Source of the DNA: a virus
Taxonomy: Duplodnaviria > Heunggongvirae > Uroviricota > Caudoviricetes
Virus record (IMG/VR): IMGVR_UViG_2534681759_000010
Coordinates: 1-36,000 of that record
Reading direction: 5' to 3' (one strand)
Length of the DNA: 36,000 nucleotides
Part shown: piece by piece, positions 5,415 to 32,205 of the stretch
How the letters are laid out: every line of letters starts with the position of its first letter
Position numbering within the stretch: the stretch's first letter is position 1
Notes under the pieces: generated by a model
Database searches by the model: none
Seen by the model: only the letters and a program-made list of their open reading frames with translations
What the model was told of the DNA's origin: nothing
Position numbers and translations under genes: made by a program

Positions 5415-5561
5415 ATGAACACTACTAAGAAAATTGATGGACGTAAAAACCCGAACCGCAAACCGTGGACCCCAAACCTGAATTTCTCAATGGTTGACTT
5501 CCATGAACGCCAGCGTCGCATTCAAGAAGAAATTGATCGCGCGATTGCTGAATCTAAATGA
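5415..5561 (+). CDS. Small basic protein, 48 aa (MNTTKKIDGRKNPNRKPWTPNLNFSMVDFHERQRRIQEEIDRAIAESK)
   Basis: Below the ORF-track size cut-off; GAGG RBS upstream; immediately downstream of the promoter. Confidence 0.35.
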   Translation: MNTTKKIDGRKNPNRKPWTPNLNFSMVDFHERQRRIQEEIDRAIAESK

Positions 5562-5662
5562 GATAAAAACTTCTTATAAATAAAATTGTTCCGCGCGCCG
5601 TTGGCGTGTGGACAGTTAAAACAGGAGAATCAATCACTAAACCGTTTAAGGGGAATTTAATT

Positions 5663-6487
5663 ATGAATACTGTTACTGCTATGAATACTGCTAAAACTGC
5701 TTCCGTGTCTCTGGTTGTTGATAACACCAAACCGCTGACCATGTCTTCTCGTCAGATCGCTGAATTTACCGATAAGAAGCACAGCAATGTAATGCGCGAT
5801 ATTCGCGAAATGTACGAATCTTTAGGTATTATCGATCAGCTCAAAACTGAATTTGTCGAGAGAATCAATAACTTAGGATATGCTGTTAAAGAACCAGTAT
5901 ATCACTTAGACGAAGAAATGACGCTGACTCTTGTCACTGGTTACGATGTTAAGCGTCGAATGGTTGTTATTCAGGAATGGAAGCGACTGAAAGAAGAAAA
6001 TGAAAAACTGCGTCAGGAACGTTTAGCTGCTAACCCGTATGCAGACTTTGAAGAAACAGACTGGATCGAACTGGCATTAAAGAAAACTCGCGAAAATAAA
6101 AAGCTGATTGAACTTCATGTTCGCAAATCCGTAGATAGCCATTCAATGACCCGTCTGTTAGGCGCTAAAAAGGGCGCTACGAAGGTTAAAGAAGCACTGA
6201 CGGCCTTGCGTACTGCTGGCTACATTGAGCGCGTCTACGATGAAAATAACAAGCCGTGTGGGTATGTTGCTAATGACTCTTCTCTGTCTTTCTGCCGCAT
6301 GAATGCTCACTACCAACTTGAGTTTACTGTTGATGTTCTTCCGGTGCTGGTTGAATTGGGCGTTTTGGAAGAAGAACAGAAAGCAACTCTTAAACTACCG
6401 CAGCCAAATAACACTATTCTGATTCAAAACAAAGCGGCTGAACGTCTCCGCCAGAATGTTGGATCACTGGAACACTTCGGACTGTAA
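5663..6487 (+). CDS. Rha-family phage regulatory protein
   Basis: N-terminal LTMSSRQIAEFTDKKHSNVMRDIREM fits the Rha signature; start taken at the internal ATG with an AGGGG RBS (track start 5606 + 57). Confidence 0.65.
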   Translation: MNTVTAMNTAKTASVSLVVDNTKPLTMSSRQIAEFTDKKHSNVMRDIREMYESLGIIDQLKTEFVERINNLGYAVKEPVYHLDEEMTLTLVTGYDVKRRMVVIQEWKRLKEENEKLRQERLAANPYADFEETDWIELALKKTRENKKLIELHVRKSVDSHSMTRLLGAKKGATKVKEALTALRTAGYIERVYDENNKPCGYVANDSSLSFCRMNAHYQLEFTVDVLPVLVELGVLEEEQKATLKLPQPNNTILIQNKAAERLRQNVGSLEHFGL

Positions 6488-14474: not shown

Positions 14475-15308
14475 ATGAATATTACACAAGATAACTTAGA
14501 CATTTTCACGGGGTCACATGTTGTCGTTTCCGTGTCTGATATGGTTGATAACCAGCCGGACTTCTTCGATCCCAGCTTTAGCCCGATTGATAACGTGGCA
14601 TCATTCCCGACGATCACCGAATCCACCGAGATAGAAACTCTTGAGGAATATGATCATGATGCTACTGGTAAACTTGCCGGATACCGCAAATTAGAACCGA
14701 CTACGCTTGTTTTAAACCGTGTTATCGACGACGAACATCAAGCAATGTTGATGAAAGCGGTAGAGGATAAAACACCTTTACGCTTCCGTATGTTCTATGT
14801 TGTGAACTCCGGTTACAGTGCTGCTAACACAGGTTACTATGTGATCTATGATGCTTATGTCACATCACACAAAACCCGTGGTAGCGATAACAAAGCTGTA
14901 ACTATGGAATTTAAGATCGAACCTGATGGCGGGATTCTGGATCGCGGTATTGCAACCGAGGGTCGTCTGCTCCGTCAGGGCGATATGGGCGTTGGTGCAG
15001 GAATTAGCCCGTTCACTGGTCCTACCGATAGCGAAGTATTAGCGGGTAACCGTTTCGTAACTTATCAGGGATCGAGCGCATCTAATCCATTTAGTGCTGA
15101 TACTTCACTAATTCACGTTCAACCTAATGACGATGGTGGATGGCAATTAACTTGCACCGCTTCCGGCGCACCACGTTTACGAGTTCGCACAGTCCAGAAA
15201 GACGGTAATTCTGGATGGGTGAAAGTGTATTCCACAGAAGAAAAACCGACACCAGCCGAGATTGAAGCCGTTTCTATCCATGACCGGATCGATTTCGGTG
15301 AGTTCTAG
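14475..15308 (+). CDS. Structural protein, 277 aa; C-terminus carries a KPTPAEIEA motif shared with the tail fibre
   Basis: GGGG RBS; C-terminal EEKPTPAEIEAVS echoes DKPTPAEIGAYS inside 15384..18914. Confidence 0.45.
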   Translation: MNITQDNLDIFTGSHVVVSVSDMVDNQPDFFDPSFSPIDNVASFPTITESTEIETLEEYDHDATGKLAGYRKLEPTTLVLNRVIDDEHQAMLMKAVEDKTPLRFRMFYVVNSGYSAANTGYYVIYDAYVTSHKTRGSDNKAVTMEFKIEPDGGILDRGIATEGRLLRQGDMGVGAGISPFTGPTDSEVLAGNRFVTYQGSSASNPFSADTSLIHVQPNDDGGWQLTCTASGAPRLRVRTVQKDGNSGWVKVYSTEEKPTPAEIEAVSIHDRIDFGEF

Positions 15309-15383
15309 TATTCACTTCCTAAATAAAACATGACGCGGGGAGGTTAACGCCTCCCTTATTCCTGTTTTATGTGAGGTGATTAG

Positions 15384-18300
15384 ATGCAATCAATCCAATT
15401 TAAGCGAACTAATGTAGCTGGCAAAAAGCCAACGCCGGAACAATTACAGGTCGGTGAGGTAGCAATCAACCTTAAAGACCATGTTATTTTTACCAAAGAC
15501 CGAGATCATGAAGTAGTTCAAATCTCTGTTTCTCCTGAAACTCACGCGGCACTAGAATCTAAAGTTGATGCTAACAAACAAGAACTGGATAGTACAATTG
15601 CAGTAAATGACCGCAATATTCACGCTAAAGTAGATGAAATTAAACAAACTACTGATGCAACCATCGCAGCAAATCACGCAGAAATTAACAATAAAGTTGA
15701 TGTAATTAAACGCGAAACCGACGCGACAATCGAGGCCAATAAAAATAAAGCTGCTTCCGATCTTGCTGGTGTTAAAGCTGAATTGTCGGATACCATCAAC
15801 GCTAATAAAAATGCGGCTGCTGTAGCAACTCAGGAACTGGACACCCGCATCAATAAAAAAGTTGATGATATTAAATCCCGTACCGATGCAACCATCGCAA
15901 GCAATTACAAAGCAATCAATGACAAAGTTGATTTGATTAAGGCAGAAACTGACCGCACTATCGCAGCAAATCACGCCTATGCGGAAAATCAGTTAACTGA
16001 CACCTACAATAACCTTACTGGTGTGATTGCGGCTAATAAGCAAGAGGCAGCGGATAACGTCGCAGCATTAACCCGTGATGTTGAAGCCAAAAATTCAGCA
16101 ATTCATAGCAAAGTTGACAATAACAAGTCTTACACTGATTCTGAACTGGCACGCTTAGAAAGCCGTATTGATGCAGCCGACGGATCGAGTGATGGCAAGT
16201 ACATCAAAAAACACGTAAACACTTATACTGATGGTTATTTGTTGTCTAAGACCGCAAACTATTTTGATGATCCGACCGCACGAAATCTTGATTATTTTGG
16301 TGCATTCCGCATGAATGACCTGGCGGGTCATATTGCAATGATCTTGCATGTTCCGCATCCATCTGGTGTTAATCATGCTCGTGGCTTTGAGTTCACTTAT
16401 GGGTCTAATCCGGTTCATACGGTAAGAACATACGGCTACGATGAATTGGGTAACTTGTCATATTCTCACCGCATGTATCATGAAGGCGATAAACCTACTC
16501 CGGCTGAAATTGGCGCATATTCGAAAGCAGAAATTGACCGACTGTTCCAGAAGACGCTTAATTTTGGGATCGAGGGTGGTTGGTTTAAACTAGGCACTTT
16601 GACAATGCCACAGCAACACGGTCGTAGTGCTAAGATCCGCTTAGTTGGTGGTAACGGTTATAACGTCGGGATGAATGGACAAGCCAATATTATCGAATTG
16701 GTGATTCGATGCGGCAACAATAGCCCGAAAGGTGTTGTATTCAATGCGTATTATACTATTTGGCATTATGAACAACATTTTTGCGCTATTCCAACCGATG
16801 GCGACAATTACGATCTTTACGCTTACTACGGTGCACATACAGGATTTGTTTTAGCAGAATATCAAGTTTCTTCCGGTGGTGTTTCTTTAAACCTGTTGGA
16901 TACTCCTGAATATCTGGGTGGTGAAAAACCTGTTGCAGATGAAATTTTTGATGCTCTTAACATTTCATCGTTCAATAACTTTAGCAACCGTGGAACGTTA
17001 AATTTTGCTGGAAACCATCAAGGCCAATACGACATTGAGCATATGAACGAACAACCGACAAATGCTAAAAAGATGTTGCGTCGCTTCCGTAGTTCTGCTC
17101 CTGCCACTATCTGGCACGAAAGTGTTGATGACCAAAATTATCGTCTTGCTACTGGATATACCGATGTAACCCAACAATTATTGCTTTCGGCTGTAACCGG
17201 TTTGCATATTCGTAGATTGACCATCGATGGTGGCTTGGGTTCCGGTTCTAATGCTGGTATTGATATTCGTCGAGGACCAAACGAAGCAAGCCATTTTAAT
17301 TTTATGGATTATCGCACTGGTCAAGATGTTCGTAATGGCTGGTTTGGTTTTGGTGATTTGACGACCAAAGATTTTATTTGGTGGAACGATAACGGTCAAA
17401 ACTCAATAAACTTGATCGAAAACGGTGAATTGCATATTACTGGCGGTAAAGGCCAGAAAATTGTAATGAATAGCGAAGTTGCATTATCTGAAAATGCTCG
17501 TTTGGCTGTCAGAGGCGGTAACTATGGTTTGATATTACGCAATGATGGTTCTAACTTCCATATTCTTACTACCGATTTAAAAGATTCTTTTGGTAATTGG
17601 AATAATCGCAGACCATTCAGCTATAATTTTGAGGACGGTGGACTATATTTAGGTGGCACTGAAACTGCTCGTTGTTTGCATCTGGGAATTGATGGTAGCA
17701 CTCGTCTCGAAGACAACCTTTTCTTTAAATCTGGTTCTCGTCAATCTATGGACTATATGGAACTCGTCCATTGGGGGGCAAGCAATACAGGTCGAAATAA
17801 CGTTTTAAGTCTTCGTGACTCAAAAGGATTTTTAGCCGAATTTGAACGCGTGGGGGGGACTAACGGCGTTAAAACCAGATTCTTTGGTGAAACCTTCACT
17901 GACGGTACATTATACCTAAATCAGATGAATAATAGCTCTGAACGATTCTCTATCAACAATTGGGGAAATTCAGAAGTTGGTCGCGCGGCAGTAATGGAAA
18001 TCGGCGATTCAAAAGGTTATCACTTCTATACTGAACGTAGGACAGATAACAGTTTGATGTTTGATGTTGCTGGCGCTTTTACTGTGCATGGATCTAGCGG
18101 GATCACTATCAAAAACTCTGATGGTGCTCGTCACATCTGGTTTAGAGATAACAGCGAATCGGAAAAGGCTGTTATTTGGGCGACCGATGAAGGTATTTTA
18201 CATATTCGCAATAACCACGGTGGACCATTTAGTCATCACTTTAAGGGTGCAATGATTCAACTGGAAGGGCGTGTTCCTTATGCCGCAGATCAAGGACTTA

Positions 18301-18914
18301 TCCGTGGTGAAGTTGATGGTGGTGCATATGTTGCATGGAGAGACCGCCCTGCTGGTTTGTTGGTTGACTGCCAGAAAAGTGTTGACAGTGCTCATGCTGT
18401 TTGGAAAGCGGTTGATTGGGGGCGTCAATATATCGCTGCTATGGACGTTCACTGTCCGGGTGATGGTAATAATACCGCAGCCGCTGTTCTTCATGTTCAG
18501 GCTGCCGATTATCAATTCCATGCAAGCGGAGAATTTCATGCCACTGGCAACGGAAACTTTAACGATGTGTATATTCGTTCTGACCGTCGCCTTAAAGACA
18601 ATATAGAAGATTATACCGGAAATGCGTTAAGTTTGATTGGTAAGCTGAAAGTGAAAACTTACGATAAAGTTAAATCTCTTAAGGACCGTGAAATTATAGG
18701 CCATGAGATTGGCATTATCGCACAGGATTTACAAGAAATATTACCAGAAGCTGTGAAATCTTCAAAAGTTGGCAATCTTGATAATCCAGACGATGTTCTG
18801 ACAATTTCTAACTCGGCAGTGAACGCGCTGTTAATTAAAGCGATTCAAGAAATGAGCGAAGAAAATAAAATCCTTCGTGAACGTCTTGCTGCAATTGAGG
18901 CTAAATTAGGGTAA
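15384..18914 (+). CDS. Tail fibre with N-terminal repeat region and C-terminal S74-type intramolecular chaperone domain
   Basis: About 19-aa repeats (KVDxIKxxTDATIAAN) in the first 250 residues; C-terminal NDVYIRSDRRLKDNIE...IIAQDLQEILPEAV resembles the self-cleaving chaperone domains of T5 pb1 and K1F endosialidase. Confidence 0.8.
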   Translation: MQSIQFKRTNVAGKKPTPEQLQVGEVAINLKDHVIFTKDRDHEVVQISVSPETHAALESKVDANKQELDSTIAVNDRNIHAKVDEIKQTTDATIAANHAEINNKVDVIKRETDATIEANKNKAASDLAGVKAELSDTINANKNAAAVATQELDTRINKKVDDIKSRTDATIASNYKAINDKVDLIKAETDRTIAANHAYAENQLTDTYNNLTGVIAANKQEAADNVAALTRDVEAKNSAIHSKVDNNKSYTDSELARLESRIDAADGSSDGKYIKKHVNTYTDGYLLSKTANYFDDPTARNLDYFGAFRMNDLAGHIAMILHVPHPSGVNHARGFEFTYGSNPVHTVRTYGYDELGNLSYSHRMYHEGDKPTPAEIGAYSKAEIDRLFQKTLNFGIEGGWFKLGTLTMPQQHGRSAKIRLVGGNGYNVGMNGQANIIELVIRCGNNSPKGVVFNAYYTIWHYEQHFCAIPTDGDNYDLYAYYGAHTGFVLAEYQVSSGGVSLNLLDTPEYLGGEKPVADEIFDALNISSFNNFSNRGTLNFAGNHQGQYDIEHMNEQPTNAKKMLRRFRSSAPATIWHESVDDQNYRLATGYTDVTQQLLLSAVTGLHIRRLTIDGGLGSGSNAGIDIRRGPNEASHFNFMDYRTGQDVRNGWFGFGDLTTKDFIWWNDNGQNSINLIENGELHITGGKGQKIVMNSEVALSENARLAVRGGNYGLILRNDGSNFHILTTDLKDSFGNWNNRRPFSYNFEDGGLYLGGTETARCLHLGIDGSTRLEDNLFFKSGSRQSMDYMELVHWGASNTGRNNVLSLRDSKGFLAEFERVGGTNGVKTRFFGETFTDGTLYLNQMNNSSERFSINNWGNSEVGRAAVMEIGDSKGYHFYTERRTDNSLMFDVAGAFTVHGSSGITIKNSDGARHIWFRDNSESEKAVIWATDEGILHIRNNHGGPFSHHFKGAMIQLEGRVPYAADQGLIRGEVDGGAYVAWRDRPAGLLVDCQKSVDSAHAVWKAVDWGRQYIAAMDVHCPGDGNNTAAAVLHVQAADYQFHASGEFHATGNGNFNDVYIRSDRRLKDNIEDYTGNALSLIGKLKVKTYDKVKSLKDREIIGHEIGIIAQDLQEILPEAVKSSKVGNLDNPDDVLTISNSAVNALLIKAIQEMSEENKILRERLAAIEAKLG

Positions 18915-18952
18915 TTGGAAAGCGGGGAGAAATCCCCGCTAAGGATTCTTAT

Positions 18953-19249
18953 ATGGGATATTGGGTAAGTAGTGAAATTAATACTAAAATCGATGCTTTA
19001 AAATGGCATGTATTTGATATTCCTAACGGTTATGGTACTGCTCGCGCTGGTGTTGCTGTTTTAAAATATAATGCTGGTGGTGGATGGGCTGATGGTGTGA
19101 TTAACGTAGATGGTTTGACCGTTGCTCGTCGTCGTGGTGGAACTAATTGGGGATCTACTATAAATTCGTTTGTTCCTGCTGGCTGCACCGTCACCTGTGG
19201 ACACGGCGGTGATGGTGGTATTGAATATTTTAAATTCATGGAGTTTTAA
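18953..19249 (+). CDS. Gly-rich small protein, paralog 1 of 3 (FDIPNGY motif)
   Basis: 98 aa; shares W...FDIPNGW/Y, Gly-rich centre and an aromatic-basic C-terminus with the next two ORFs. Confidence 0.6.
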   Translation: MGYWVSSEINTKIDALKWHVFDIPNGYGTARAGVAVLKYNAGGGWADGVINVDGLTVARRRGGTNWGSTINSFVPAGCTVTCGHGGDGGIEYFKFMEF

Positions 19250-19251
19250 TT

Positions 19252-19557
19252 ATGGCTGGATGGATAAATCAAAGAATGTCAAACGCTATTAGTATTTGGG
19301 CTAATGGTGGGTATTTTGATATCCCAAACGGTTGGGTCACTGATTCATGCGGAATTGTTTTTGCTCATATGGAAGCCGTTAACGGTGCTGGTGATCTTGA
19401 TTCTGAATTGGCTGTAAATGGATTGATTGAATCAGGTCATCATGCTGGTGATGCTGGGAGTTGGGGCGCTAGTTCTTTAGTTGGCGCTGGTGCTACCGTT
19501 AGCTTTACATTGGGTAAAGGTAGTTTGCATTATTTCAAATTCAGGAGAATGCACTAA
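19252..19557 (+). CDS. Gly-rich small protein, paralog 2 of 3 (FDIPNGW motif)
   Basis: 101 aa; start 2 nt after the upstream stop. Confidence 0.6.
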   Translation: MAGWINQRMSNAISIWANGGYFDIPNGWVTDSCGIVFAHMEAVNGAGDLDSELAVNGLIESGHHAGDAGSWGASSLVGAGATVSFTLGKGSLHYFKFRRMH

Positions 19558-19859
19558 TGGCATTTTGGGTAGATGGCGCTTTGGGGAATAGGGCGGGTAA
19601 AGCAAATCAAGGATGGTTTGATATTCCTAACGGTTGGACAGCCGACGCTTTCGGGACTATTTCATTCTGTGCTCATTCTTCCGGTGGTGGCGGCGGTGAC
19701 TCTGAATTGTTTATTCATGGTTTTTGTGTTTCTGGAAGCCATAAGGGTCATGATTGGGGACAGATTCATTCTTGTATTGCACCGCAAGGGGCGGTAATTA
19801 CCGTTAGCACAAATAGGGGGATCGCTCATCTTCGTTATAGACGTTTGAGCAACCGCTAA
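19557..19859 (+). CDS. Gly-rich small protein, paralog 3 of 3 (FDIPNGW motif)
   Basis: 100 aa; TAATG stop-start overlap with paralog 2. Confidence 0.6.
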   Translation: MAFWVDGALGNRAGKANQGWFDIPNGWTADAFGTISFCAHSSGGGGGDSELFIHGFCVSGSHKGHDWGQIHSCIAPQGAVITVSTNRGIAHLRYRRLSNR

Positions 19860-19913
19860 ATAAATAGAATTACGGGTATGTGCCCTATTGTTTAAAATAG
19901 AAGGAAAAGAATA

Positions 19914-20384
19914 ATGACTACTAAATTTGATATTTTTTCTGGTGGCCTCGTTGGTCTGTTTCTGCATGAAGAAGTAACTAACACCGATCTTGACAGTGAA
20001 AGCTATCTGGAAATTCCAGAATGTGCGGCTTTCCCGGAAACTGGTGTAGAACGTTCTACTATCGATGTTCCTAACTTCGGTGGTCCGTATAACCGTAAGC
20101 TGGTTGGTCGTATGTCTGTACCGGATATCGAACTTTCGATCAACTACATGCCGGGTAACGAAGTACACGAAAAACTGATTAAAGCAACCGAAGACGGTAA
20201 GCGCGTACAGCTTAAAATTGCTTACTACATCGACGCTACGAAAAAATCTGGTGTGCACATCGCTTATAACGGCTTCCTGTCTAAAACTACCATGACTGGT
20301 GGTGAGGATGCTGTAGTAGGCCGTACCTTCACCTTTGTAGTAGATGGTGCTCCGGTTAAACAAGCTGTTTTCCAGAAAGTCTAA
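19914..20384 (+). CDS. Major tail tube protein
   Basis: 156 aa immediately upstream of the chaperone pair and tape measure; followed by a strong terminator, as expected for an attenuated highly expressed gene. Confidence 0.6.
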   Translation: MTTKFDIFSGGLVGLFLHEEVTNTDLDSESYLEIPECAAFPETGVERSTIDVPNFGGPYNRKLVGRMSVPDIELSINYMPGNEVHEKLIKATEDGKRVQLKIAYYIDATKKSGVHIAYNGFLSKTTMTGGEDAVVGRTFTFVVDGAPVKQAVFQKV

Positions 20385-20392
20385 TATTCTCT

Positions 20393-20419
20393 AGCCATCC
20401 TTCGGGGTGGCTTTTTTGT
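20393..20419 (+). terminator. Rho-independent terminator after the tail tube gene
   Basis: AGCCATCC-TTCG-GGGTGGCT hairpin followed by TTTTTTG. Confidence 0.65.
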
Positions 20420-20466
20420 TTCCAATTCTAAATAAACATATCTAATTAACTTAAGAGGAAACAAGA

Positions 20467-20775
20467 ATGAATATTAATGAAATGTTAGCCGCACTCTCTC
20501 CGAAACGCGAATCTGTAACCATCGGTGGATTCACTTTCTATGCTCGCCCTATGTCAGTAAAAGAATTTAATGAACATGTTTTCAATACCGATAAAGAAGA
20601 CCGTGATGAACGTTCTATTCTTCGTTGTATTGAAGATGAAGACGGTAAGCCAGTATTTGAATCTATGGAACAAGTTAAGGCACTGTATACTAACGTCCGC
20701 AGTGAATTAATCGGTTTAGTTGCTCAAGCGTCATTGATGCAAGATCCGGCAGTAATTGAAAACGAGGTAAAGTAA
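20467..20775 (+). CDS. Tail assembly chaperone, lambda G-like
   Basis: 102-aa acidic protein immediately upstream of the tape measure. Confidence 0.55.
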   Translation: MNINEMLAALSPKRESVTIGGFTFYARPMSVKEFNEHVFNTDKEDRDERSILRCIEDEDGKPVFESMEQVKALYTNVRSELIGLVAQASLMQDPAVIENEVK

Positions 20776-20804
20776 ACCCGCTTCTGAATTTCTACTTTCG
20801 GCAA

Positions 20805-21146
20805 ATGATGCGATCGGGGCTTAGTAAAGATGAAATGGATAATATGCCAATCACTCTGTTTTGGAAATTATACATTTTCGACACCTACTTAGAACCACAA
20901 AGCCCCGCGTTTCATGATATGCAGAATGCGATGTTGCAATATTCCATGTATATGACGTCGCAAGGAATGACACTCGAAACTGCACGTAAACTCAAGCCTA
21001 GCCAATTCCAATTAATTAGAGAAGAAAAACTCTTTAAAACTAAAGAAGAACTGGAAGAAATTGCACGCAAGAAAGAAGAAGAACGTAAAGCGGCAATGCT
21101 GAACATGTTTGATCCATCTTTGCTTGAGAAACTCAGAAGCGGTTAA
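20805..21146 (+). CDS. Tail assembly chaperone extension, lambda T-like; probably made as a G-T frameshift fusion
   Basis: The frame is -1 relative to G and open from about 20760, overlapping the end of G by about 13 nt; no RBS before the first ATG at 20805. Confidence 0.45.
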   Translation: MMRSGLSKDEMDNMPITLFWKLYIFDTYLEPQSPAFHDMQNAMLQYSMYMTSQGMTLETARKLKPSQFQLIREEKLFKTKEELEEIARKKEEERKAAMLNMFDPSLLEKLRSG

Positions 21147-21157
21147 AGGGGTAATTT

Positions 21158-23587
21158 ATGACAAGACATATAGTAACAATAGAAGGGGATAATAAAGGTC
21201 TAAGGAGAAGTACCAATGAAGCCGCCGACCTTCTCGATAGTTTGTCTGAAAAGGCAAGTAATATTGATTTTGGTGGTGGCTTGTCTGGTCTGACTGGATC
21301 TCTTCGTGGTATTGCTGGCTCTGCTGGTTTGGCTGCTGGTGGTATTGGCTTAGTTGCGACCGCAGTGGTTGCAGCCGCTAAAGCTGGTGCGGAATACGTT
21401 AAACAGTATTCAGAAGTATCTAAGGCGACCGGACTCTCGATTGAATCCCTTCAAAGACTAGAAAAGGAATTTTCTGGCACTGGCCTAACAGTTGAAAAAT
21501 TTGGTGATATCAACAAAGACACCTTAGATAAAATGGGTGATGCATGGGCTAACGGTGGCGGTATTGCCGATGACTTAGAATCGGTTGGCCTTAAGTTAGA
21601 AAACTATGCTCACTTCATGACCGATCCGCAAGGTGGTATGAAAGCGGCGATCCAAGTGTTCTATGACATGAAGAAAGCCGGAAAATCAATGGCTGAAATC
21701 AAGTTCATGATGGAATCTTTAGCCAGTGATTCAAGCCATATGACCAGCCAGCTTGAGAAATATAATAGTGCTCAAGAGGCGATGATCGCTATTCAGAATC
21801 AATCTGTTAACGTCACCGAAGAAAACGCTAAAAAATATGATAAATTTTCTCAGAATATTAATAAGCTGGAAAATAACCTGAAAGGTGTCGGTATGACCAT
21901 TACTGGTCCGCTGGTTGATAGCTTAAACTGGTTATTTGAATGGTTTAATATTGATTGGGAAAAGAGTTCTCTATTCAGGGCATTAGACCGTCTGAATAAA
22001 GAAGGTAAGACCGCAACTGGTGGTATTCTTAACACCAACCATAAAGACGCTCAAAAGATTATTGACAAGTACAATAAAGAAAAGCGTTGGAATAATCTGG
22101 CAGATTGGGAAAAGGCCGCGATCCGTGGTGCTGGTGTCGATCCTCGTACTGCTGGCTTTGATGTTGAAGGATTTAAGAAACGTTTTGGTGATTCTTATAA
22201 GAAAAATGGCTCTCTGATTGTTGTCGATAACGGGGAACATCTAACCCGCAAGGCAGATCCTAACCATGATTTGACTATCCCGACTACACCAACTCGACCA
22301 GCTTCATTGGGTAAGTCTGGCAACGAGAAGAAAGCCGAGGAAGAAGCCAAAAAGAAAGCGGAAGAGGCAGCTAAAAAGGCTAAGGAAGCCGCAGAAAAAG
22401 CACAGAAAGCACGCGAGGATGCAATCAAGCGACTGAATGCACTTGATGTTAAATTGCAAGGGCAAGTTGCAGCGTCTATCACTTCTCAAAATAGCCAGTT
22501 GCAAAACAGCTTAAAAGATGTGAACGACGCGTTAGCTCTGGGCTTAATCTCTCAGGAAGACGCAGCCGCGAAACGCCAGGCGCTAATCGATCAGAATACT
22601 GAAAACGTTTATAAAATGATGTTGGGTGCTGATCCGATTGATGCTCTGAATGCTTTAACACAATTGCAACAAATCAGGGACAACGAGCTAGAAAGCCATA
22701 AACGGTTACTTGATGGTAAAGCTATCTCCTACGAAGAATATATGCGTCGTGTGAACGATACCGAGCAAAACTATTCTCAGATTGAAAATTCTTTACAGGG
22801 AATGGATGGTTATAAAACCAATCAATTAACTAGTGGTTATGATTATCAAGACTCAAATAATCCGTTTGCTAAATTTAATGCAATCGATAAAGAGAAATCG
22901 GAAGCGGAACAAGATCATAAGACCGATAAACTCAAGATTGATGGGATCACCGATCCGGCTAAACGGATGGAAGCATTAGAAAAACTCAATGAAAACCATC
23001 AAAAACGAATGGCTGCAATTGAGAAGAAATATGCTGATGCTCGTCAGTCAATAGCTGATGATATGTATGGCGGTTTTGCTGCTGCAATGACTCTCTTCGG
23101 GCAGGAAAACACTAAAGCAATGCAGATGGCTTTCACTGCTCATAAAGCATTCTCCATTGGACAAGCGACGGTGAACATGTGGACGGCTGCTACCGATGCA
23201 TGGAACGATCCGACCAACGTAACCACAGGTCAAAAAATCGCTGCTGCTGCATTGGCTGTTTCTCAGAACATGGGGAACATCGCAAACATCAAGTCTACTA
23301 ACGTTAGCGGTATGGTTCACGATGGTATTGATAACATCCCTCGTGAGGGTACATGGTTGCTTGATAAGGGTGAACGAGTAGTTGATCAGCGTACTAACGG
23401 CGATTTGAAAGACTTCCTTGCTGCTCAAAAATCAGGCGGTGGCAACTCTCAGCCGATTGAAGTTAATGCGCCTTTGAACATTAACGGCAACGTTAATAGC
23501 TCAGACAAGATGGTCATGGATGCTATCAAACGTCACGCTAAGTTAGTTGCTCAGGCGGTAGAAGACGCACAGCGTCGTAAGATGTAA
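21158..23587 (+). CDS. Tail tape measure protein
   Basis: 809 aa; Gly/Ala-rich hydrophobic N-terminal segment; long coiled-coil and K/E/A-rich regions; position after G/T. Confidence 0.8.
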   Translation: MTRHIVTIEGDNKGLRRSTNEAADLLDSLSEKASNIDFGGGLSGLTGSLRGIAGSAGLAAGGIGLVATAVVAAAKAGAEYVKQYSEVSKATGLSIESLQRLEKEFSGTGLTVEKFGDINKDTLDKMGDAWANGGGIADDLESVGLKLENYAHFMTDPQGGMKAAIQVFYDMKKAGKSMAEIKFMMESLASDSSHMTSQLEKYNSAQEAMIAIQNQSVNVTEENAKKYDKFSQNINKLENNLKGVGMTITGPLVDSLNWLFEWFNIDWEKSSLFRALDRLNKEGKTATGGILNTNHKDAQKIIDKYNKEKRWNNLADWEKAAIRGAGVDPRTAGFDVEGFKKRFGDSYKKNGSLIVVDNGEHLTRKADPNHDLTIPTTPTRPASLGKSGNEKKAEEEAKKKAEEAAKKAKEAAEKAQKAREDAIKRLNALDVKLQGQVAASITSQNSQLQNSLKDVNDALALGLISQEDAAAKRQALIDQNTENVYKMMLGADPIDALNALTQLQQIRDNELESHKRLLDGKAISYEEYMRRVNDTEQNYSQIENSLQGMDGYKTNQLTSGYDYQDSNNPFAKFNAIDKEKSEAEQDHKTDKLKIDGITDPAKRMEALEKLNENHQKRMAAIEKKYADARQSIADDMYGGFAAAMTLFGQENTKAMQMAFTAHKAFSIGQATVNMWTAATDAWNDPTNVTTGQKIAAAALAVSQNMGNIANIKSTNVSGMVHDGIDNIPREGTWLLDKGERVVDQRTNGDLKDFLAAQKSGGGNSQPIEVNAPLNINGNVNSSDKMVMDAIKRHAKLVAQAVEDAQRRKM

Positions 23588-23637
23588 TTAAAAGCCCTCA
23601 TAGTGATAAATAATCATAAAACTATGGGGGCTTTTCT

Positions 23638-24198
23638 ATGTTCAAATCCAAGAATATTAAAATCACAGATTTTACTCTTAAATCAAAACAGCCTTTCTTC
23701 AAGGCGCAATCTATTTCTGGTAAGTTCCAGCGTCGCTTTACTGGCATCCATTTTTACGAAGCAGAATTTACCGCGAATTACATGGCTCAGGATATTAACG
23801 AAGTAAAAGAATTTGTAGCACGTCACCTTTTTGGTCGTCCTTTCAGTGTGCCGCTGTCTTACTTTTCAAAATATACAGGTGATGTACGCCAGATGGTTAC
23901 GGCTGCTGCTGGTACTGCTCGCGGTGGGCGTAAGGTAAGACTCTCCAACTTCACCGGAACACTGAAAGCGGGAACTATCATCCAGTTTGAGAACCACAAG
24001 AAAATCTACACGATCACCGAAGACGTGAAATCAGGTGGTGAAATGAAACTCTTCCCTAACTTGCGTCAGAACGTCCTGGCGGGTGAGGTGATCAAGTATC
24101 AGAACGTAGAAGGTGAATTTGTTCTCAAAACTGAAAACATCGATTGGAAGATCGCCCAGATTGGCAAGATGAAATTCGAATTAGTGGAGAATGTATAA
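23638..24198 (+). CDS. Minor tail protein, lambda M-like
   Basis: Position after the tape measure; loose pattern similarity to gpM. Confidence 0.45.
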   Translation: MFKSKNIKITDFTLKSKQPFFKAQSISGKFQRRFTGIHFYEAEFTANYMAQDINEVKEFVARHLFGRPFSVPLSYFSKYTGDVRQMVTAAAGTARGGRKVRLSNFTGTLKAGTIIQFENHKKIYTITEDVKSGGEMKLFPNLRQNVLAGEVIKYQNVEGEFVLKTENIDWKIAQIGKMKFELVENV

Positions 24199-31752: not shown

Positions 31753-32205
31753 ATGTTGATGATCGAGTTCGTAGAAACCGAATTAACTAAACTGGCTTCC
31801 GAAATGGAAGAAGAAACTCCGGCAGAAGGAACCAGTATTAACGATCTTATTCTGGCAGCAGATACCGCAGATGATAAAGTAGTATTCGACGAAGTTGATC
31901 CGTCTCTGGTTGAAGCAATGAAAGAACCTGAGATCGTCATTGAAGAAACAAAAGAAGAATCTCCAGCAGTTGAACCAGTGGTCGAAGAAGTTAAGTCAGA
32001 TGTTGAAGAAGCACCGGAAGTTAAAGTGAAATCTCCGGTAGCAAACATTTTCTCTGACGAAGCAGAACATCGTTCCCCAGCACATGACACTGATTCATTT
32101 TGCGATCTTACTGGCTTCCGTCCGACCATTTGCTTGATCGGTGGCGGTCGTGGTTACTACTCCTGCCCGTGGTCTTCAACCATTACAACAAATTTTTCTC
32201 AATAA
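31753..32205 (+). CDS. Highly acidic protein, 150 aa (E/D/V/P-rich, VEE repeats); DNA-mimic or anti-restriction candidate
   Basis: Frame uses codons I recall as preferred in enterobacteria (GAA, CCG, CTG, GCA); the overlapping minus-strand ORF 31725..32129 is a Ser/Thr-rich antisense shadow. Confidence 0.5.
   Translation: MLMIEFVETELTKLASEMEEETPAEGTSINDLILAADTADDKVVFDEVDPSLVEAMKEPEIVIEETKEESPAVEPVVEEVKSDVEEAPEVKVKSPVANIFSDEAEHRSPAHDTDSFCDLTGFRPTICLIGGGRGYYSCPWSSTITTNFSQ

Follow-up and report, generated by a model that had tools for sequence, protein, structure and literature searches.

The question raised by this locus is what three small Gly-rich genes, lying in tandem directly downstream of a tail-fibre gene, contribute to the virus. 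The whole stretch of DNA that was analysed (36,000 nucleotides; hereafter the window) represents a prophage of E. coli, integrated within ycdX. In ETEC1739, the element in ycdX is ~35 kb long and ends with a large serine recombinase. The order of the genes is of the siphovirus type: terminase, portal, protease-capsid fusion, 1176-aa lateral fibre, the three small genes (the trio), tail tube, two chaperones, tape measure, and tip proteins. Megablast against 50,697 phage records gave no related phage, save two patches common to Krischvirus. At least 80% of positions 15000-24000 of the window was covered in 21 of 5426 complete E. coli genomes, and 57 genomes showed some match. In several sister prophages (H35, H37, H40, H43, and L025 at 5547-5855), the fibre/tail region carries an inserted IS element (IS3, IS421, or ISVsa5) or a gene for a GIY-YIG nuclease. 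In some genomes, RefSeq gives the label "cytochrome" to the small protein encoded 3' of the tail tube gene, which is probably a mis-annotated tail assembly chaperone. The genes in question are as follows.

15384..18914, plus strand: lateral tail-fibre gene, 1176 aa; distal half T-even gp37-like, with Peptidase_S74 at aa 1066-1125 (about nt 18579-18758)
18953-19249, plus strand: copy 1 of the trio, 98 aa; W4, helix 5-12, and a 7-strand C1q/TNF-like beta-sandwich in the model; C-terminus FKFMEF
19252-19557, plus strand: copy 2, 101 aa; architecture as in copy 1; C-terminus FKFRRMH
19557-19859, plus strand: copy 3, 100 aa; C-terminus LRYRRLSNR

The fibre protein matches Gp34_trimer (E 1.2e-14) and Peptidase_S74 (E 2.1e-15) in Pfam and "long tail fiber protein distal subunit" in PHROG (E 3e-135); the match to S16 gp37 (PDB 6F45_A) is weak. 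Its C-terminus is a self-cleaving intramolecular chaperone of the Peptidase_S74 type. At 15384-16200 (fibre aa ~60-260), in the N-terminal third of the protein, several degenerate ~30-aa repeats (..KVDxIKxxTDATIxAN..) are seen, which look like a coiled-coil shaft and give a spurious Apolipoprotein match in Pfam. The gene downstream of the trio encodes a lambda-like tail tube protein of 156 aa. A 277-aa protein encoded just upstream of the fibre (14475-15308) matches the major-tail-protein family phrog_158 (E 1.5e-8), as does the 156-aa tube protein; therefore, the fibre gene and the trio are flanked by two tube-like genes. By analogy with T5, the 277-aa protein may form a collar or a fibre-anchoring ring.

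The three ORFs of the trio are real paralogs. Their pairwise identities in BLASTP are 38% (E 2e-9), 35% (E 4e-14), and 24% (E 5e-8), a similarity far beyond chance, and M1, W4, the F-D-I-P-N-G stretch, and several Gly residues are invariant across the three copies. The Gly content is 16-18%, compared with 7.2% for the remaining proteins of the window. Copies 1 and 2 are separated by a gap of 2 nt, and the start of copy 3 overlaps the stop of copy 2 by 1 nt (TAATG). These results bear out the initial annotation, which had described three consecutive, Gly-rich paralogs of ~100 aa with abutting or overlapping stops and starts. Its list of shared motifs needs correction, however: W4 and F-D-I-P-N-G are present in all three copies, but DSEL is found in copies 2 and 3 only, and the aromatic-basic C-terminus does not apply to copy 1, which ends in the aromatic-acidic FKFMEF.

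Each gene of the trio has its own Shine-Dalgarno sequence, and those of copies 2 and 3 (19238-19246 and 19541-19549) lie inside the preceding gene, within conserved C-terminal codons: F-M-E-F corresponds to ATGGAGTTT and F-R-R-M to TTCAGGAGA. This means that part of the C-terminal conservation of the trio may reflect a constraint from translational coupling. In one IMG/VR cassette (L015, about 6200-6310), a frameshift is present near the end of copy 2, caused by either sequencing error or prophage decay; when read at a fixed offset, copy 3 is out of frame there as well.

A search with copy 2 gave 10 clusters among 5.8 billion proteins, and of 1.84 billion cluster representatives searched with the family profile, about 15 were genuine members of ~100 aa. 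Long repetitive proteins also appeared among the profile matches (P0022, P0025, and others); they are artefacts of composition or repeats. By tblastn, the family is present in three of 50,697 phage genomes, all Krischvirus myoviruses (G37-3, G2248, and UPWr_E1), and it is found in at least 22 of the 5426 complete E. coli genomes; a scan of viral contigs gave close relatives only. UPWr_E1 has been used in a phage cocktail for poultry litter (PMC12427302). The RefSeq annotation of all three genes is hypothetical protein.

The readable loci are from E. coli prophages, two Salmonella prophages (L002 and L007), the three Krischviruses, a contig of a T7-like podovirus (L017), and four further metagenomic lineages. 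In every one of them, the trio is located directly 3' of a fibre gene ending in an S74 chaperone. The order of the three genes is constant in every complete locus (the third ORF of L026 and L027 is cut at the contig end), and no singlet or doublet of the family was seen among the readable loci. The position between fibre and tail tube, taken as a clue in the initial annotation, holds for the window but is incidental: the neighbours of the trio are gp37 and the holin gene t in Krischvirus, and the gp17 fibre gene (Phage_T7_tail plus S74) and a gp17.5-like holin gene in the T7-like contig.

The number, order, and orthology of the copies are fixed in all eight lineages examined. Identity within a position is 49-100% among E. 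coli, Krischvirus, and Salmonella, compared with 19-41% between positions. The position-1 proteins are monophyletic across all loci, and copy 1 always ends in F-x-F-[MQI]-E-[FLM]. Each gene is under purifying selection (dN/dS 0.07-0.37). This position-specific identity, together with the dN/dS values, indicates that the triplication is old and that all three genes have been individually maintained. The idea of a host-range diversification cassette, raised when the triplication was first noticed, is not supported, since the copies are ancient position-specific orthologs of fixed order and number under purifying selection; a DGR-like or interchangeable-variant set was rejected on the same grounds. 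Among close relatives, copy 1 is the most variable copy. Its changes cluster at residues 37-39, 46-49, and 81-90, all in Gly-rich loops, and these loops are reminiscent of the hypervariable segments of gp38, the separately encoded protein discussed below.

AlphaFold2 models were obtained for copy 1 (pLDDT 86.5) and copy 2 (pLDDT 81.8). In both models, a low-confidence N-terminus and a short helix right after W4 (residues 5-12 in copy 1 and 7-13 in copy 2) are followed by a confident all-beta sandwich, which extends from residue ~17-19 to the C-terminus and contains seven strands of at least three residues. Foldseek searches against viral models gave C1q-domain, collagen-repeat, and tail-fibre proteins with moderate scores (E 1e-4 to 1e-2; TM 0.45-0.65). 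The body of each trio protein is thus predicted to be a compact C1q/TNF-like jelly roll, and the jelly roll of this superfamily is present in the models.

In agreement with the initial annotation, which did not recognise the family, profile searches place the trio in no known family. Pfam gave neither C1q/TNF nor any other match for 20 family members at E <= 1, no family of PHROG or NCBIfam matched, and PADLOC models matched 0 families at E <= 1. No match to chaperones of the Tfa/Caudo_TAP or T4 gp38 type was obtained from Pfam, PHROG, or NCBIfam. PDB sequence matches to designed Pizza propellers were rejected as chance matches of "PNGxxxDSAG". No description of the trio was found in the literature.

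What, then, is the trio doing next to the fibre? The most informative comparison is with gp38 of T2, T6, and S16 (PDB 6F45 chain D, "receptor-recognizing protein"). The C-terminal part of the window fibre (mature tip plus S74) is ~90% identical in DNA and 88-96% identical in protein to ACG-C40/RB3 gp37 and the TO6 fibre; its last 283 aa are 92-96% identical to the gp38-using fibres of ACG-C40 and TO6. In the last ~150 residues preceding the cleavage site, a single position distinguishes the window from TO6. In ACG-C40, RB3, and TO6 the gene next to the fibre gene is gp38, and the RB3 gp38 is clearly homologous to that of S16 (PDB 6F45_D; E 1.5e-49). The slot of the trio is likewise occupied by gp38 in JS10. 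The gp38 protein pairs with the same or near-identical tips as the trio, and TO6 and the window represent a natural interchange between them. A second variant of the trio (G2248, UPWr_E1, and prophage PE15) is combined with another tip, 62-68% identical to that of JS10, which uses gp38. In total, at least four sequence types are represented among the tips of the fibres that accompany a trio. No gp38 homolog was found in the window (tblastn), in the complete ETEC1739 prophage, in the Salmonella loci, or in 165 of the 167.8 kb of G37-3. The left part of the exchanged segment is composed of the following features.

18858..18914, plus strand: left edge of the cassette, formed by the last ~16-19 fibre codons, which end in ..EENKILRERLAAIEAKLG in trio loci and in ..EEIKELKTPFFTKIARKISKYFKF in gp38 loci
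18921..18940, plus strand: GC-rich hairpin AGCGGGGA-GAAA-TCCCCGCT in the spacer that separates the fibre stop from copy 1 (MFE -18.1 kcal/mol, z -2.0)
18941-18945, plus strand: Shine-Dalgarno sequence AAGGA of copy 1, directly 3' of the hairpin

The breakpoints with G2248, PE15, ACG-C40, and TO6 were all located by blastn at window positions 18858-18870. The end of the fibre gene co-varies with the trio; the right edge is at about 19860-19875. TO6 contains, directly after gp38, a chimeric ORF of 70 aa (L003 5758-5970), which is also present in ETEC4085 (NZ_CP122634.1). This ORF is composed of Krischvirus intergenic sequence, nine Krischvirus codons (MVYNIIIGA..), and the last ~60 codons of copy 3. 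It indicates that a gp38 cassette replaced copies 1, 2, and part of 3, and the ORF is a scar of this gp38-for-trio replacement. The shared fibre tips, common breakpoints, TO6 scar, and absence of gp38 together show that the trio is a ~1-kb cassette (window ~18858-19875) alternating with gp38 on gp38-competent fibre tips.

A further patch of 415 bp in the window (31759-32173) is 99% identical to the region of "inh" (inhibitor of prohead protease) in the Krischviruses JSE, Phi1, and GEC-3S, although the DNA of the prophage is otherwise unrelated to theirs. This patch, the fibre/trio module, and the TO6 junction all point to repeated recent exchange between the prophage lineage and Krischvirus.

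The hairpin, followed by a Shine-Dalgarno sequence, precedes gp38 genes as well as the trio. The E. coli, Salmonella, and Krischvirus loci all have the hairpin of the window, with a loop of ATTTCT in UPWr_E1 as against AGAAAT. A hairpin and Shine-Dalgarno sequence of different sequence are found in three other trio loci (L017, L021, and L026) and in four gp38 loci (L003, L008, L009, and L023); in L019 and L022, a spacer of only 10 nt takes the place of the hairpin. The hairpin was not called by a terminator scan because it lacks a T-run, and by the criteria of that scan it is not a terminator. It may set the ratio of fibre to cap expression or stabilise the mRNA.

In spite of sharing a slot, the trio shows no detectable homology to gp38: hhalign of the two profiles gave E 0.7 with a probability of 0.07. 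The sole aligned stretch was the N-terminal W motif, MAGWINQRMSNA against GVPCWMSQFAGRS. The Trp motifs of T2-type gp38 are PGW-IGSS, QRW-MSQA, and PCW-MSQF, and the N-termini of the trio are MGYW-VSSE, MAGW-INQR, and MAFW-VDGA; the motif is short and beyond statistical test. W4 is invariant in all 21 enterobacterial sequences; some distant members have Y, L, M, or Q at this position. In Salmonella and several metagenomic contigs, the copy 2 orthologs have an N-terminal extension ending in ..RIPxxGW, which in the Salmonella type is close to ..GVPGW.. of gp38. Gp38-type gp37 has "YFKF" at its C-terminus, which resembles the last strand in copies 1 and 2, but the stretch is too short to interpret.

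The two systems are alike in having an N-terminal Trp followed by a short helix and in having variable, Gly-rich loops, and both genes are directly 3' of a gp37-type fibre gene with a self-cleaving chaperone. However, gp38 is a single chain of 250-266 aa with three helices, a beta-helix, and a polyglycine-II sandwich, and it sits as a monomer on a trimer, whereas the trio consists of three chains of ~100 aa, each with one predicted N-terminal helix and one predicted C1q/TNF-like jelly roll. Three Trp-tipped helices in one chain are therefore not seen in the trio. Nor is a polyglycine-II sandwich: the models are beta-sandwiches, and the Gly content of 16-18% contrasts with >50% in the gp38 sandwich domain (PMC6851490). 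The trio seems to be a functional replacement of gp38 from outside the gp38 family, from which it differs in sequence, chain number, and fold of the receptor domain.

According to the authors of the S16 structure, one gp38 monomer attaches via an N-terminal three-helix bundle after removal of the gp37 chaperone. The exposed Trp at the apex of each helix enters one of the equivalent hydrophobic pockets that the gp37 trimer presents every 120 degrees (PMC6851490; PMC9569957). From this mode of attachment and the Trp motifs of the trio, one Trp-tipped helix per paralog is proposed, with the fibre as the docking partner. The reading to which we give the greatest weight, with a probability of roughly 0.45, is that the trio assembles 1:1:1 into a heterotrimeric head, which attaches to the tip of the fibre trimer via three Trp helices, as the gp38 monomer does via its own three, and acts as the adhesin.

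The steps would be the following. The fibre trimer would fold via its own C-terminal S74 chaperone, which would then cut itself off. The tip so exposed would present three symmetry-equivalent hydrophobic pockets, those filled by the gp38 monomer in T2/S16-type phages. Each paralog would give one N-terminal Trp-tipped helix (M-x-x-W, then the helix), and the C1q/TNF-like jelly-roll bodies would pack around the fibre axis into a 1:1:1 head with pseudo-threefold symmetry. The tight translational coupling would lead to equimolar subunits, and the variable Gly-rich loops of the head might touch the host receptor. The earlier suggestion of fibre-associated adhesin or lectin-like subunits is supported by the genomic context, namely linkage to S74 fibres in three morphotypes and one-for-one exchange with gp38 on near-identical tips, and by the predicted head fold; receptor binding would be the corresponding function.

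Alternatively, the trio might consist of non-structural assembly factors or transient caps, which fold or protect the tip after the S74 cut and are absent from mature virions, so that the bare tip binds the receptor. Genes directly 3' of fibre genes often encode chaperones that act on the tip, such as T4 gp38, Tfa of lambda and Mu, the "transient caps" of Alteromonas phages, and Pam3 gp25 with its beta-sandwich domain (PMC9608196; PMC10579305). The mature tip also hardly differs from tips for which a partner is normally required. On the other hand, this fibre already has its own intramolecular chaperone, and the partner swapped onto the same tip is gp38 of the adhesin type, not a chaperone. 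In addition, the trio has no similarity to the Tfa, Caudo_TAP, and T4 gp38 families, and its predicted fold differs from theirs and is typical of fibre heads. The assembly-factor explanation is therefore considered unlikely.

Domains of the C1q/TNF-like type are usually homotrimeric. Each paralog might accordingly form its own TNF-like head, so that the fibres of one virion would carry different heads, i.e. three alternative adhesins for up to three receptors. The predicted fold is compatible with this arrangement, a homotrimer would likewise supply three Trp helices for three pockets, and in close relatives the variation of copy 1 exceeds that of copies 2 and 3, as if the copies had evolved independently. 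Alternative adhesins, however, should be gained, lost, and reshuffled, whereas number, order, and orthology are fixed in the eight lineages. The tight translational coupling also suits a stoichiometric complex. Separate homotrimeric heads thus seem quite unlikely.

That the trio is an unrelated moron, joined to the fibre by recombination hot spots and acting in superinfection exclusion, receptor masking, or anti-defence, might be imagined for genes so small, unannotated, rare, and horizontally mobile, but it is very improbable: the trio sequences contain no signal peptide or membrane segment, the promoter scan gave no promoter above chance inside the cassette, PADLOC gave no match, and the three genes, which share the orientation of the late structural operons in which they lie coupled, accompany S74 fibres in three morphotypes whose genomes are otherwise unrelated and are mutually exclusive with gp38.

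The proposed heterotrimeric head has parallels elsewhere. The head of complement C1q is one trimeric head encoded by three tandem paralogous genes, as is supposed for the putative trimer of the trio, and lymphotoxin a1b2 is a heterotrimer of the C1q/TNF family. The trio differs from these heterotrimers in showing no sequence similarity and in having a domain of about 80 aa instead of about 130. In addition, C1q is fused to collagen stalks, whereas the trio head would join a homotrimeric, beta-structured fibre non-covalently. In the fibre protein gp24 of the myocyanophage Pam3, an N-terminal helix for docking is combined, much as in the trio, with a TNF-like domain and with receptor-binding loops rich in Gly (PMC9608196); its structural resemblance to S16 gp38 was reported by the authors (PMC9608196). 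A precedent for the proposed stoichiometry is provided by the virophage DSLV2, in which three consecutive paralogous tail genes were biochemically shown to give a 1:1:1 heterotrimeric receptor-binding fibre (PMC12724248). The DSLV2 proteins are unlike the trio in that they resemble the gp37 needle, form the whole fibre and not a cap, and are unrelated in sequence.

The trio is thus a real, very rare, and uncharacterised fibre-tip cassette, an alternative to gp38, for which a heterotrimeric C1q-like cap is an attractive but unproven model. It may even represent a new class of host-recognition device, a heterotrimeric C1q-like head of three paralogs plugged non-covalently into a self-processed fibre tip and carried as a portable, gp38-replacing cassette across myo-, sipho-, and podoviruses; this wider claim is plausible, at somewhat less than even odds.

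In the T-even phages, host range is switched mainly through adhesins of the fibre tip that have a gene of their own, such as gp38, and these are a favourite target of engineering. The trio would be a second, structurally unrelated way to cap the same fibre tip, in which three small subunits swap as one ~1-kb cassette that already moves among enterobacterial phages, both temperate siphoviruses and lytic myo- and podoviruses. In three phage isolates and at least 22 complete genomes of E. coli, three adjacent entries of "hypothetical protein" gain a working name and a hypothesis. If the model is true, the broken threefold symmetry would create one asymmetric binding surface from three independently evolvable subunits. 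The trio would then be a case for how a symmetric fibre is matched with an asymmetric or pseudo-symmetric cap, and a parallel in bacterial viruses to the three-gene head of C1q.
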